A stretch of 64,000 nucleotides of DNA from assembly GCA_016839805.1 (NCBI GenBank), contig JAEOTO010000032.1, forward strand, positions 1 to 64,000. The letters are read 5' to 3'. The first letter of the stretch is position 1. Every line of letters begins with the position of its first letter. The notes under the pieces are model-generated. The model saw only the letters and a program-made list of their open reading frames with translations. It was not told the DNA's origin and made no database searches. Below, piece by piece: positions 3,308 to 30,253 of the stretch. Made by a program: the position numbers and the translations under genes. This DNA comes from Candidatus Hermodarchaeota archaeon. GTDB taxonomy: Archaea; Asgardarchaeota; Hermodarchaeia; Hermodarchaeales; Hermodarchaeaceae.

Positions 3308-4048
3308 CTATCCCCGCTTCTTCTTTCCAGTTCGCTTAGGAGCGATCAAACCAACTTTTCGACCTGGTGGAGTTGTGCGTTTAACAGAACTTGGTCCACC
3401 CGGGCGTTGCTTTGCACCACCACCATGCGGGTGGGATACAGCATTCATAGCTACACCCCTAACTTTGGGATACGTGTGACCCTTCGCGTATCGGGCCTTG
3501 TGTTTACTACCAGCTTTAAGGAAGGGTTTCTCAGGCCTACCACCACCTGAAACTACTCCAATGGTTGCTCGTCCAGTCGAGCTAAATGTACGAGTTTTTC
3601 CAGATGGTAAACGCACAGACGTTTTTCCACGAGAATGGGTGATAATTGTGGCATAAGTACCACTAGAACGAACAAATTTGCCTCCATCTCCTGGTTGCCC
3701 TTCAATATTGAAGATAGGAGTTCCTTCAGGAATTTTACCTAAAGGTAAAATATGACCAGCACGGACGCCAGCTTTGGGACCAATACGCAATTGTTGACCC
3801 ACAGAGGTGCCTTCAGGAACTAAAGCGAGATATTTTTCTCCGTTTTCCAACCTTACTTGAGCTACAGGTGATCCGCGACCTGGATCATGCATCAAATCTT
3901 CGATGTCTGCGGTCAGGAATCCACGCTTACCCATAAGCGCTAAAGGTGGATATTTGACTGCTCCTCGACGTCGGTGTGTTTTTGCACGGAATGTAGGAGA
4001 GCCACGTCCACGCCGTTGAACCAAGATTCTTTTACCCATTTTTTCCAT
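3308..4048 (-). CDS. rpl2: Ribosomal protein uL2
   Basis: MGKRILVQRRGRG, HDPGRG, VRGVAMNAVSHPHGGG. Confidence 0.97.
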   Translation of the reverse strand: MEKMGKRILVQRRGRGSPTFRAKTHRRRGAVKYPPLALMGKRGFLTADIEDLMHDPGRGSPVAQVRLENGEKYLALVPEGTSVGQQLRIGPKAGVRAGHILPLGKIPEGTPIFNIEGQPGDGGKFVRSSGTYATIITHSRGKTSVRLPSGKTRTFSSTGRATIGVVSGGGRPEKPFLKAGSKHKARYAKGHTYPKVRGVAMNAVSHPHGGGAKQRPGGPSSVKRTTPPGRKVGLIAPKRTGKKKRG

Positions 4049-4055
4049 CCTCCTA

Positions 4056-4319
4056 TTAGAAGAGTCCTAATTTTACCGCTAGATCCGCAGCGTTATCCTC
4101 AGGAGATAATTTGACCATAGCTTTCTTTTCCCCTTCAGGAGTGATCAATGTGTTTACTTTGATAACCCTGACTTCATACAATGTCTCAATAGCTTCTCGA
4201 ATTTGCCCCTTGGTCGCTCTCCGGTTTACAATGAAGGTTAATCGATTTTCTCTTTCAACAATTTCAGAAGCTCGCTCAGTAATCATCATACGAATTATTA
4301 CATCATAAGGATCCATCAT
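4056..4319 (-). CDS. rpl23: Ribosomal protein uL23
   Basis: ENRLTFIV...[18 protein letters not shown]; operon position. Confidence 0.95.
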
Positions 4320-24753: not shown

Positions 24754-25440
24754 TTACCGTTGCAGTAGCGTCGCACCTTTGCCCTTACCGACGTAGACGA
24801 CATCTGCATAAGTGGGGAAGAGACCGTTTTCGAGAACCCCTGGAATGACGTTCAGACGTTCTTCTAGCCTAGCAGGGTTTGGAATTTGTGGAAATGTTAC
24901 ATCTAGTATGAAGTTTCCATTATCAGTGATTATTGGTCCAGCCTTTCGATCAGCTTGACGAAGCCTCGGTGAGCCGCCTAGTTTTTGGATTCGATCCATA
25001 GTAAGAGCAAGAGCGTCTGGCAGTATTTCTACTGGAACTGGCATCCTGGTGCCCAACTTATCAACGAGTTTGGCACTATCCACGATAATAATTAGTTGTT
25101 GGGCTGCTGCGGCTAATATCTTCTCCCGCAGGAGTGCAGCTCCACCCCCCTTGATAAGTGCAAGTTTCGTGTCAACTTCATCTGCACCATCCACTGCACA
25201 CACAAGACTTGTAACACGCCCAAGCGGCAGAGTAGCGATTCCCGCATCATGAAGTCGCAGCTCTGTGGCATAAGAGCTAGGAACGGCCGTAATTGAAATA
25301 TTTTCAGCCGCGACCTTCTCGACTAGTAATTCAATAAAAAGTTCAACTGTTGATCCAGTTCCAACGCCTAGACACATTCCATCTGAAACGTGGTTGATTG
25401 CCGCTTCTGCAGCCAGACGTTTTTCCTCAGCAGATGTCAT
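24754..25440 (-). CDS. rpiA: Ribose-5-phosphate isomerase A
   Basis: GVGTGST, DGADEVD, IKGGGAALLREKI, TDNGNFILD. Confidence 0.96.
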   Translation of the reverse strand: MTSAEEKRLAAEAAINHVSDGMCLGVGTGSTVELFIELLVEKVAAENISITAVPSSYATELRLHDAGIATLPLGRVTSLVCAVDGADEVDTKLALIKGGGAALLREKILAAAAQQLIIIVDSAKLVDKLGTRMPVPVEILPDALALTMDRIQKLGGSPRLRQADRKAGPIITDNGNFILDVTFPQIPNPARLEERLNVIPGVLENGLFPTYADVVYVGKGKGATLLQR

Positions 25441-25548
25441 TTTGTATCCATCCTTCTACCAGATACACACGTATATCATTTCAAACACTTGACCCTTAAA
25501 AATCCCATATAGAAATCAAGTTACTTAAAGAAAATAAATAGTGTAAAG

Positions 25549-25765
25549 ATGGAGCCTCGGGCGAGAAAGTTCGTGTCCATGAAGTACACGATTCGTTGGA
25601 ATAGTGCCGATATCGAGAAAAGGGAAATACACTAGCGTTCTTGCTAAGCAAGAAGGCTGAAAAATATCGGTCTTATCCGTTCCATATCAGGGCCCTTTCC
25701 GTTGCCCTCACCATCCAGCCATTTATGGTCATGGAGGGCGTGTTTGCGTTACCGACAAACATAGC
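25549..25765 (-). ncRNA. Predicted guide-RNA scaffold plus guide for the Cas12f-like nuclease
   Basis: Successive hairpins after the stop codon (TGTTTG/CAAACA, GCCCTC/GAGGGC, CCGATAT/ATATCGG, TTCTTGC/GCAAGAA, TCGTGT/ACACGA), then GAAC and a tRNA-like 20-mer. Confidence 0.6.
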
Positions 25766-25768
25766 GAG

Positions 25769-27121
25769 TTATTCCATCTTTACTATTTTCTTAATTTGAC
25801 GTTTACCACGACGTGCTAGTTCAATTGCAGCGTTTACATCTCTTGGGAGTTTTATGCCACAGGCAGGACACCGAAAAACAGAATGACTAAATCTCGTTAA
25901 CAGACAAAGACATCCCCGAGGGCAGATGCAACTAGAATAAGCTGCATTTACCCAAATGACCGGAATACTATGTAATGCCGCGTTTCTCTGGATGGTTTTC
26001 CCCATTTCTCCTCTAGCCCATTTACTAAGTTGATCCCGTAATTTCGGCTTTGCCCAAGGTGTTCTTCTTCGAGTAGGTTGATAAGTGCTAAGATTTTCAA
26101 GAGAAATAATTGGGTGATTAAACTGGGCTGCGTAGCGTACTATCACGTTAGCAGTTGTGTTAATCCAATGTTTAATTATACGTTGGGTTTTTTTGTCGAG
26201 GGCTTGGATCTCTTCAGACTTATTTAGTCTTGAAGCTTTTTTTCGTTTCCCCCAAAGTTGTCCTAGCTGATGTTTAAGCCGTTTCCCGGATACTACCTTT
26301 GCAGGAAGTATTCGTTCGTCATTGGAAATTGCTACTGCAGCAGCAAGAGAATTAATTCCCAAATCAACACCTATCACTGTTGGATTGGTTAAATTTTCTA
26401 TTTTGGGAACATTGACTTTAGTTGTCACTGGAACAGCCAAGTAGACTTTCTCTTCACGGTTAATGAGCCTTGGAGCTCCTATCGAATATCCTTCTTTTCC
26501 ATTGAGTGCTTGACGGATAAGTTGTTCAGGTTTGCCACCAATAACAGCTCGTGTTTTAACAACCACCCTGTCAATAGATACATGGATATCTTGAGTGTCT
26601 GAGTCAATGAAAATCCGTAGGTTGGTCTGAGGCCATTGACCACGTTGACTGCCTGGCCAACCTTTGAGGTTATCTGAATATGAAACTATTCGGTTTAGCC
26701 CCGGCAAAGGTTCAGGTAAATCAATACATTTCTTCGAAGTCCATCTAGTCCAACTCTTTAGTATTTCGTAAGTTAGAACGCGTTCCTTTTTCCAATAAGA
26801 TAACCATTGATAGGCTTCTCGTCCTGCCCGATCCAACATACGTGCTGGAAGTTGAGCAAAAGTTGGATGTTTCCGTAATTCGTGATAGATTTCCTTTTCT
26901 GTACAGTTTCCCTCCTGTAAAAGGTTAATAAATCGTCGGATTGCTCGGGTGTATAATCGTCGTAATCGATAAACTACATTTGTAGTAACTTCAGGTAAAC
27001 TAAGCCAAACAGTTCGTGTAACGGATTCAATCGTTTGGATATGATTTTGAACTCCTTTAAGCGGTCGTTCAGAGGATTCAACTACTTCAGATAATGCCGC
27101 GATCTCTATTTGACCCATCAA
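25769..27121 (-). CDS. Divergent TnpB/Cas12f-like RNA-guided nuclease (450 aa)
   Basis: RuvC VIGVDLG / ISLENL / PRDVNAA, VNAAYSS..C and CPACG zinc finger; atypical N-terminal half. Confidence 0.8.
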   Translation of the reverse strand: MMGQIEIAALSEVVESSERPLKGVQNHIQTIESVTRTVWLSLPEVTTNVVYRLRRLYTRAIRRFINLLQEGNCTEKEIYHELRKHPTFAQLPARMLDRAGREAYQWLSYWKKERVLTYEILKSWTRWTSKKCIDLPEPLPGLNRIVSYSDNLKGWPGSQRGQWPQTNLRIFIDSDTQDIHVSIDRVVVKTRAVIGGKPEQLIRQALNGKEGYSIGAPRLINREEKVYLAVPVTTKVNVPKIENLTNPTVIGVDLGINSLAAAVAISNDERILPAKVVSGKRLKHQLGQLWGKRKKASRLNKSEEIQALDKKTQRIIKHWINTTANVIVRYAAQFNHPIISLENLSTYQPTRRRTPWAKPKLRDQLSKWARGEMGKTIQRNAALHSIPVIWVNAAYSSCICPRGCLCLLTRFSHSVFRCPACGIKLPRDVNAAIELARRGKRQIKKIVKME

Positions 27122-27192
27122 TCCAACCTAATACCAAATAACATGAACACGCGTTTATTTCCATTAGAGACTTGGTTATAAATGAAAAATAA

Positions 27193-27269
27193 TGGAGCCT
27201 CAGCCGGGATTCGAACCCGGGATCCCCACCTTACCAAGGTGGTGCGCTACCATGCTATGCCACTGAGGC
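27193..27269 (-). tRNA. tRNA-Thr(GGT), no intron
   Basis: GCCTCAG/CTGAGGC-T-CCA, CCACC-TT-GGT-AA-GGTGG. Confidence 0.93.
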
Positions 27270-27282
27270 TTGACAAATGATA

Positions 27283-27464
27283 TGGTGCCGAGGGCGGGCG
27301 TTCCGCGAACTCCAACGGATTTCGTTTCGAACCCGCGACCTCCAGATGTCTCCGGCGCCAGTCATCATAATATTCTGACCCTGGGGCAAAGCCCTATGAG
27401 TATCGCCCTAATATTCCAAGAATGGTTACTAGTCTGGCGCTCAACCAGGCTAAGCTACCTCGGC
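27283..27464 (-). tRNA. Elongator-type tRNA-Met(CAT) with three introns (30/31 at 27402-27433, 37/38, 59/60)
   Basis: GCCGAGG/CCTCGGC acceptor stem; removing three BHB-bounded inserts gives CCAGA-CT-CAT-AA-TCTGG and GCGGG-TTCGAAG-CCCGC. Confidence 0.85.
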
Positions 27465-29189: not shown

Positions 29190-29264
29190 GCCTCCGTAGC
29201 ATAGTGGTGGTGCATTGGCCTTGTAAGCCAACGGTCCCGGGTTCAAATCCCGGCGGAGGCTCCA
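29190..29264 (+). tRNA. tRNA-Thr(TGT), no intron
   Basis: GCCTCCG/CGGAGGC-T-CCA, TTGGC-CT-TGT-AA-GCCAA. Confidence 0.93.
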
Positions 29265-30116: not shown

Positions 30117-30253
30117 GGGCCGGTAGTCTAGTTATCCGGTTACAATATGTGCTGGACTAGAGCGGTATGATGCGAGAAGATAAAACGGGTTCTGTTTTTC
30201 TCGCAAGGTTTGGGACCTCGTGGTCCCGAGTTCAAATCTCGGCCGGCCCACCA
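30117..30253 (+). tRNA. tRNA-Pro(TGG) with D-loop and 30/31 introns
   Basis: GGGCCGG/CCGGCCC acceptor stem; spliced arm CGAGG-TT-TGG-GA-CCTCG; BHB helices CTAG/CTAG and TGCG/CGCA. Confidence 0.87.

Follow-up and report, generated by a model that had tools for sequence, protein, structure and literature searches.

TnpB helps its own transposon to persist by cutting the emptied donor site, and the ISDra2 enzyme cuts 15-21 nt downstream of its target-adjacent motif (TAM); this enzyme is reportedly the subject of Karvelis 2021, and 'restorative homing' is said to go back to Meers 2023. In synthetic CRISPR drives of the 'home-and-rescue' or 'cleave-and-rescue' type, a nuclease directed against an essential gene is linked to a recoded, resistant and functional copy of that gene. 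TnpB/omega-RNA nucleases have been reviewed (PMC13565253), and the parts of the same source that deal with free-standing homing endonuclease genes, or 'intronless homing', take in T4 SegB (a cutter of the tRNA gene region), SegF/SegG and I-TevIII-like marker exclusion (PMC13565253). Here we describe a locus, within a 64,000-nt stretch of DNA from a Hermodarchaeota archaeon (the window), in which a tnpB-like gene and an adjoining RNA-coding segment, together referred to as the cassette, are found directly 3' of the sole tRNA-Thr(GGT) gene of the genome. Literature searches for work that connects TnpB to archaeal tRNA recoding or homing turned up nothing of direct relevance, and we came across no report of a TnpB that homes at a tRNA gene and is paired with an immunised tRNA. 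We consider it probable, at roughly 0.62, that the cassette is a transposase-less TnpB/omega-RNA element that acts like a free-standing homing endonuclease gene at tRNA-Thr(GGT).

All coordinates refer to the window, which belongs to an 87%-complete genome (G000). The cassette and tRNA-Thr(GGT) both lie on its minus strand and are organised as follows:

27193..27269, minus strand: tRNA-Thr(GGT), recoded allele (ARAGORN; Rfam, 59.5 bits; alignment with 16 relatives)
27122..27192, minus strand: left end of the cassette, with a T-rich, TATA-like block, TTTTTCATTTATAA...CCAAGTCTCT, that is kept upstream of the subfamily 2 and 3 homologues
25769..27121, minus strand: tnpB-like gene, 450 aa (open reading frame, or ORF; RuvC triad D252/E341/D427 and a zinc-ribbon TNB domain)
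25569..25770, minus strand: predicted omega-RNA scaffold, ending ...GGACACGAAC (alignment with subfamilies 2 and 3; RNAalifold consensus)
25549..25568, minus strand: predicted guide segment, the 20-mer TTTCTCGCCCGAGGCTCCAT, a copy of a tRNA-Thr 3' end
25532..25548, minus strand: T-rich tail of the cassette past the guide, CTTTACACTATTTATTT (right edge of the low-divergence tract, from sliding identity between G000 and G006)

The left end starts 0-3 nt past the CCA of tRNA-Thr(GGT), and its TATA-like block is probably the tnpB promoter. The tnpB ORF begins 71-74 nt past the tRNA (the ATG at 27118 lies 74 nt after CCA) and is followed by a non-coding tail of about 200 nt that ends ...GACACGAAC; the T-rich CTTTACACTATTTATTT is probably a terminator, and rpiA starts beyond it, at 25440. 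The recoded tRNA-Thr(GGT), with marker bases A6 (27264), C49 (27220), G65 (27204) and T67 (27202), has fully paired stems as read (T stem CCGGG/CCCGG, acceptor GCCTCAG/CTGAGGC). Its 3' end forms a direct repeat with the guide segment (25549-25566 versus 27192-27209), in which 15 of 18 positions are identical. Between these two tRNA-end repeats we found tnpB and the omega-RNA segment alone, with no integrase. Furthermore, no match to a Y1 or serine transposase (PF01797, PF00239) was obtained in the 87%-complete genome, and neither tandem nor CRISPR-like repeats were found in the 64-kb window. A preliminary description of this DNA had noted a 450-aa RuvC protein some 70 nt after the tRNA, a structured tail of about 200 nt leading into the 20-mer at 25568-25549, an adjacent tRNA that is 15/18 identical to the 20-mer with its own stems perfectly paired, and the lack of a CRISPR array; ORF and Pfam data, a covarying scaffold and the repeat searches bore out each of these points.

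The 450-aa protein scored 46.3 bits against the Pfam family Cas12f1-like_TNB (PF07282; cut-off 26.3) and 28.9 bits against OrfB_IS605 (PF01385), slightly below the cut-off of 30.5, with no Pfam match to the HTH_OrfB_IS605 domain. Its RuvC D-E-D triad (D252, E341 and D427) was unchanged across 12 aligned homologues. An AlphaFold (AF2) model (pLDDT 78) gave AsCas12f as top match in Foldseek (E 1e-16, TM 0.61), followed by ISFba1 TnpB (E 8e-11), ISDra2 TnpB and Fanzor2, and sequence identity to the Cas12f structural matches was 14-16%. While the Cas12f/TnpB fold implied by the original term 'Cas12f-like nuclease' was therefore recovered, the Cas12f label itself did not hold: fold, motifs and RNA place the protein rather among the TnpB-type (obligate mobile element-guided activity, OMEGA) nucleases, with cleavage as a predicted activity. 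By the usual marks of an insertion sequence (IS), namely a TnpA, multiple copies and a guide equal to the native flank, the cassette does not belong to one. Close homologues number about 16 among 5.8 billion proteins, one of them with a source name, in Promethearchaeota (Asgard), and the related genomic loci come from Asgard metagenome-assembled genomes (MAGs). Two paralogous subfamilies (2 and 3) share about 51% protein identity with the present nuclease, of which G000 holds a single copy together with one paralogue at 33% identity. The ratio of nonsynonymous to synonymous divergence (dN/dS) of tnpB is 0.18, which, together with catalytic residues that stay intact across a synonymous divergence (dS) of 0.5-0.8, argues for continued selection on the protein.

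The scaffold could be aligned across the three subfamilies up to ...ACGAAC/ACAAAC, beyond which divergence is complete, and RNAalifold returned a consensus of 37 pairs, 11 of them with compensatory changes; no Rfam family was matched by the scaffold. By this pattern of conservation the non-coding tail is an omega-RNA scaffold, and the tRNA-like 20-mer occupies the guide position, because the alignment with subfamilies 2 and 3 goes no further than ...ACGAAC. Since a "TTTC" after ...AAC is common to subfamilies 1 and 2 and is absent from subfamily 3, the first guide base is uncertain by up to 4 nt. The guide segment parses as the end of a T loop, the 3' strand of a T stem (CTCGC), an acceptor strand (CCGAGGC), discriminator T and CCA, followed by T. 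Its exact 17-mer core, TCTCGCCCGAGGCTCCA, is the 3' end of complete tRNA-Thr genes in other archaea (Thorarchaeota L116; Aenigmatarchaeota L122, L073, L112) that have the T stem GCGAG/CTCGC and the acceptor GCCTCGG/CCGAGGC. Because the 17-mer closes complete genes in this way, the 20-mer is a true tRNA-Thr end, as first suggested, and no chance look-alike. The guide is identical in all occupied lineages, with 0 of 23 columns variable as compared with 23% in the scaffold. The G000 genome contains no other copy of TCTCGCCCGAGGCTCCA, and each of its three tRNA-Thr genes (GGT, TGT and CGT) shows three differences from the 17-nt guide core, towards the TAM side.

In Aenigmatarchaeota L084 and L102, a tRNA-Thr-like T loop carries an insertion, probably an intron, directly 5' of TCTCGCCCGAGGCTCCA; it thus falls between the place of a TAM and the guide target, and ARAGORN called no gene there. 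The G000 paralogue (contig C18:6630-8303) is followed by AAGTGTCATAATAGCATTTTCCAGA, a near-identical version of which stands after the scaffold of a distant homologue (L062); AAGTGTCATAATAGCATTTTCCAGA also resembles a motif that is present five times on contig C33:13065-43463, four of the copies lying about 1 kb apart.

To define the site without the cassette, rpiA was searched in 30 relatives and the DNA upstream of it was compared, with 14 same-genus and 4 sister-genus genomes included. The rpiA locus was assembled in 12 of the 14 same-genus genomes, and the cassette was found there in G006 only; all four sister-genus genomes were without it. Nine same-genus genomes and all four from the sister genus carry a nuclease-free tRNA-Thr(GGT) about 90 nt upstream of rpiA with the 3' end TCCCGCCCGAGGCTCCA. 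The preliminary description had raised the question of whether relatives lacking the gene hold the presumed target, a tRNA-Thr with acceptor GCCTCGG and T stem GCGAG/CTCGC, at this locus. A tRNA-Thr(GGT) with the GCCTCGG/CCGAGGC acceptor is indeed what stands there, so that this half of the proposed allele was confirmed; the T stem was not, as it reads GCGGG/CCCGC within the genus, and the exact allele occurs only in distant archaea. The empty-site end TCCCGCCCGAGGCTCCA is identical to the guide at 16 of 17 positions. The sole difference is C62 for T62, at which the guide would pair with the empty allele through an rU:dG wobble.

Occupied loci, by contrast with empty ones, carry altered stems. 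Every one of them (G000, G006/L001, L023-26 and L063-65) has C49:G65 and T67, with A at position 6, or G in L065. The occupied allele matches the guide at 14 of 17 positions, the mismatches falling at tRNA positions 62, 65 and 67. The swaps put an rC:dC mismatch at 65 and an rC:dA mismatch at 67 (guide positions 6 and 8 with T60 as the first), in the part nearest the presumed TAM, and both leave the tRNA stems paired. In the closest comparison, between the tRNA-Thr genes of L065 (occupied) and G012 (empty), the differences are at positions 49, 65 and 67 alone. The nearby tRNA-Thr(TGT) gene (29190-29264, plus strand) has the T stem CCGGG/CCCGG, the same as that of the recoded tRNA-Thr(GGT).

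We then compared the age of the cassette with that of its hosts, choosing rpoB (about 6 kb from the site) as species marker and dropping rpiA and endA since they flank the site. In the rpoB tree the genus falls into three clades, each with an occupied genome beside an empty sister: G000 and G013 (host dS 0.25-0.33), G006 and G002 (host dS 0.29-0.37), and L065 and G012 (rpiA dS 0.14, flanks 95% identical). Between clades, tnpB has a dS of 0.53-0.79, whereas in these genome pairs the host genes rpiA, endA and rpoB have reached saturation (synonymous differences per site, pS, 0.72-0.80; dS >2.4). The tnpB divergence is so far below that of the hosts that the cassette must have reached this one site in separate species well after they split. 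It has thus spread horizontally to one site, with purifying selection on the protein throughout. This agrees with the earlier suggestion that the nuclease travels with a recoded, immune tRNA, in that the two occur together in three host clades as a unit younger than its hosts; the immunity itself is predicted. No virus or plasmid vector for the cassette was found in IMG/VR.

The edges of the inserted tract, a unit of about 1.7 kb that is the same in the three clades, could be located by comparing lineages. On the right, sliding identity between G000 and G006 is 80-95% within the cassette and 53-62% about 17 nt past the guide (0.95, then 0.62, then 0.53 after ~25532), and comparison with G013 has the native trailer resuming at TTTTCTTTAAG. 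On the left, the donor-type sequence of tRNA-Thr begins at position 49 in L065, and already at position 6 or before it in G000 and G006, while the inter-tRNA spacer and the T-loop intron of the neighbouring tRNA-Met stay lineage-native. Such variable co-conversion of the flank nearest the break is expected of homing. In G006, the rpiA end (L157, G006:C36, ~3860-4080 in locus coordinates) has about 220 nt extra relative to its sister G002.

Two genomes have the recoded tRNA and no nuclease. In G003 the recoded tRNA is fused to the flank that otherwise follows the guide (TCTTTACA), which is the product expected of recombination between the two tRNA-end repeats, and in G005 the recoded tRNA is joined to native flank. 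From their sequences, both would be nuclease-free resistant alleles, of the kind known from the life cycle of homing endonuclease genes, with resistance as a prediction.

These data suggest the following mechanism. The omega-RNA would be expressed together with its guide, which permanently reproduces the 3' end of tRNA-Thr(GGT) in its unoccupied form (target TCYCGCCCGAGGCTCCA). The cassette would meet such an allele on a second copy of the genome or when DNA passes from one related species to another. The ribonucleoprotein would bind the tRNA gene, using a TAM within the invariant T loop (compatible with GGTTCGAA), and a TnpB cut ~15-21 nt downstream of that TAM would fall at the CCA end, where the cassette sits. 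Repair of the break from cassette-bearing DNA would then copy the cassette along with the adjoining part of the donor tRNA. As the target lies wholly inside the tRNA and is undisrupted by the insertion, the occupied allele must be protected by sequence change. The donor swaps G49:C65 to C49:G65 and G6:C67 to A6:T67 (or G6.T67) would give a tRNA that still folds and that presents two true mismatches to the guide, and may thereby let the occupied allele escape re-cutting. Later loss of the cassette through recombination of the two tRNA-end repeats would leave resistant recoded alleles behind. As to the guide, it may possibly have originated when an element inserted canonically in the T loop of another tRNA-Thr copy, which later lost its 5' part. 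The features by which homing genes are recognised are present at this locus: presence and absence at one site, an element younger than its hosts, co-conversion and, at the sequence level, a recognition sequence that is found in the empty allele but altered in the occupied one.

A number of observations weigh against this homing interpretation. The genomes are MAGs that are 72-91% complete, the sample is small, and genomes that are related do not count as independent. The guide is off by one, at position 62, from every target sampled in the order, its exact 17-mer having been found only in Thorarchaeota and Aenigmatarchaeota; if the resulting wobble, near the TAM, were not tolerated, the empty alleles here would not be cut. 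The empty genome G011 has the 6:67 swap, and a guide match of 15/17, without the cassette. The lack of variation in the guide reaches only modest significance (P ~0.003), and the scaffold contains a 33-nt invariant run of its own. A TAM was also sought in paralogues (subfamilies 2 and 3, L060/L062 and the one on C18), but their upstream sequences shared no consistent motif. The cassette is no canonical insertion; its guide is not native flank, and it lies after a complete tRNA. Finally, ordinary homologous recombination could carry an insertion between species without any nuclease activity.

Several of these points would be accommodated by an alternative that we regard as unlikely, though worth keeping in view, in which the cassette is a stranded relic. 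Here an old TnpB insertion near tRNA-Thr would have kept its flank as guide and would move only by homologous recombination of the tRNA-rpiA neighbourhood, with TnpB kept for some other reason or not yet decayed, and with the tRNA differences amounting to linked neutral variation. A guide one base off every empty allele in the order and a G011 swap without a cassette both suit such an account. In addition, the nearby tRNA-Thr(TGT) has a T arm identical to the recoded one, so plain gene conversion from it may have supplied the C49:G65 swap. What the relic scenario has difficulty in explaining is the continued selection on the protein, with intact catalytic residues and a dN/dS of 0.18, and how three acquisitions at an identical site, each beside an empty sister, came about without drive or benefit. 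Nor does it account for cassette-linked changes that lie exactly in the guide-matching segment and are compensated on the other strand, or for the same logic in two other nucleases nearby (see below).

The cassette might instead be a domesticated defence system, in which a host nuclease acts against foreign DNA that carries the ancestral tRNA-Thr 3' end, as attP sites or virus-borne tRNA-Thr would, while the recoded chromosomal tRNA avoids self-cutting and spoils the attachment site. The preliminary description had offered a version of this idea, with the nuclease guarding a tRNA attachment site against integrating elements. The sublocation of integration in tRNA genes is reportedly the subject of Williams 2002, and the guide matches a sequence typical of the att sites of tRNA-integrating elements; the nuclease is intact and under purifying selection, and its locus is fixed, with no transposase found. 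Against this, IMG/VR held no viral contig with the T loop and either target allele, and the four viral matches to the 17-mer were not tRNA-like, which leaves the guarding of an attachment site unsupported. Furthermore, a defence gene would be expected to be inherited vertically, and the cassette is much younger than its host clades and missing from sister species. We therefore think a defensive role improbable.

Still less probable is a regulatory role, in which the protein would adjust expression as a non-cutting binder of tRNA-Thr or of promoters in the vicinity. A fixed locus, a fixed guide and no transposase are features shared with TldRs, for which Wiegand 2024 (cited in PMC13565253) is reportedly the source; TldRs are nuclease-dead TnpB repressors that have lost their RuvC residues. 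The present RuvC triad is invariant, the tRNA-Thr genes of the same genome, all three of them, differ from the guide at 3/17 positions towards the TAM side, and a patchy, horizontal distribution is unlike that of a host regulator. The notion, considered at the outset, that the two tRNA ends are attL and attR of a decayed integrase-mediated element can be dismissed as next to impossible: a complete tRNA with a displaced 3' fragment is a classic mark of tRNA-targeted integration, but only tnpB and omega-RNA occupy the ~1.7-kb tract between the repeats, the fragment begins exactly where the scaffold shared with paralogous TnpB loci ends, the repeats agree at 15/18 positions without an identical core, and the same 1.7-kb unit recurs in three clades.

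Other ways of generating the arrangement were considered and rejected. That an IS605 element inserted canonically in the T loop and brought a new tRNA 3' end on its left side cannot be the whole story, because the partner base C49 changes with the cassette, joined in G000 and G006 by position 6 and the anticodon stem, and because native trailer does not directly follow the guide. A reading of the tRNA-like 17 nt as a transposon end, with the real guide downstream, was ruled out as scaffold homology ends at ...ACGAAC. A split tRNA or alternative 3' exon was ruled out as well, since the genome contains no matching 5' half (GCCTCGG...GCGAG).

The surrounding tRNA genes were found to include further nuclease-tRNA pairs, involving two tRNAs with introns:

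27283-27464, minus strand: tRNA-Met(CAT), 182 nt, with three introns (30/31, the canonical 37/38 and T loop 59/60), missed by ARAGORN
30117-30252, plus strand: tRNA-Pro(TGG), with a D-loop intron and a 30/31 intron

The anticodon of tRNA-Met was settled by alignment with relatives that lack the 30/31 intron. Close to this gene lies a classical TnpB (TnpB-2; 28798-27581, minus strand; 405 aa) with HTH, OrfB and TNB domains, an element that constitutes a 1.43-kb insertion relative to G013. Its guide, CCAGACTCATAGGGCG (27566-27551, minus strand), has the sequence of the anticodon arm found in the intronless tRNA-Met of G013, a sister genome, and in the window the arm matching CCAGACTCATAGGGCG is split by a 32-nt intron at 30/31. 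Subfamily 2 of the present nuclease family adjoins 5S rRNA and tRNA-Pro(TGG) in G005, G006 and G008 and in loci from metagenomes and other genomes. Its guide has a 13-nt match to a tRNA-Pro segment that is bracketed exactly by the D-loop and 30/31 introns; beyond 13-14 nt, no exact target for this guide was found in the order. The tRNA-Pro intron is present in all three genomes with the subfamily-2 nuclease, all four genomes with an intronless D loop (G013, G002, G011 and G014) are without that nuclease, and the intron is present and the nuclease absent in G000, G001 and G009. Fully intronless tRNA-Pro genes were seen in G002, G011 and G014, with G013 lacking the D-loop intron. The window is itself an empty site for the subfamily-2 cassette in which the tRNA-Pro introns are still kept. 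At occupied subfamily-2 loci (L030:2740-4680), a diverged 61-nt duplicate (75% identity) of the tRNA 5' end and promoter lies past the guide.

Taken at face value, the sequences of TnpB-2 and subfamily 2 would show the same design as the tRNA-Thr cassette within 5 kb, with immunity there coming from introns. This leads us to propose, tentatively and as something that may well prove wrong, that the Asgard tRNA/rRNA cluster is a battleground of transposase-less, RNA-guided homing nucleases in which introns and stem swaps spread as immunity. The three nuclease-tRNA pairs within 5 kb, with tRNA-Thr (stem swaps), tRNA-Met (30/31 intron) and tRNA-Pro (D-loop and 30/31 introns), fit this idea. The route by which Asgard tRNA introns arrive has been called open (bioRxiv 10.64898/2026.10.13.758758); if the battleground idea is true, intron gain in these genes would be driven at least partly by co-conversion during TnpB homing.

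On the homing interpretation, the locus suggests a TnpB life style that has no transposase, one fixed site and a carried guide, and that spreads between species in a homing-like manner. The target would be an essential gene, the sole tRNA-Thr(GGT), which would stay functional by being co-converted to an immune version that preserves its structure. This would offer a testable reason for the odd introns and stem changes in Asgard tRNA genes. The existence of natural alleles that correspond to the states before insertion, after insertion and after loss makes the reading directly testable, and for studies of TAM and specificity the locus supplies a compact nuclease (about 450 aa) whose predicted natural target is defined.

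Compared with described systems, the protein has its best structural match in CRISPR-Cas12f (type V-F), with which it shares a similar size and the Cas12f1-like_TNB domain. Unlike type V-F systems, it has no array in the 64-kb window and is served by a single guide fused to its scaffold, and its sequence identity is 14-16%. The TnpB/OMEGA nucleases of IS200/IS605 and IS607 elements (e.g. ISDra2) have in common with it the RuvC D-E-D triad, the zinc-ribbon TNB, the TnpB/Cas12f fold, a structured RNA encoded at and beyond the gene's 3' end, a guide that immediately adjoins the scaffold, and a correspondence of that guide to the unoccupied site, so that cutting would restore or copy the element. 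In contrast to these elements, the cassette is a single copy at a fixed site with no TnpA found in the genome, its guide is a carried copy of the end of a neighbouring gene and not native flank, and it sits at the predicted cut site and not at the TAM. It also leaves its target intact, relying for protection on compensated substitutions, and spreads between species into one site rather than by transposition to many.

The resemblance to free-standing homing genes lies in a nuclease placed between conserved genes and aimed at the allele that lacks it, in flank co-conversion, in a patchy distribution with horizontal transfer, and in a cycle of invasion, loss and resistant alleles. Unlike the T4 homing genes, the cassette would recognise its target through a guide RNA and not through protein, its host is an Asgard archaeon and not a phage, and the immunity linked to it would take the form of paired, structure-preserving tRNA changes. 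Such an RNA-guided nuclease, directed at an essential gene and linked to a recoded functional copy of it, would be a natural counterpart of the engineered home-and-rescue gene drives. It differs from them in being natural, prokaryotic and far smaller, and in that the rescue would be the resident gene itself, edited by co-conversion.

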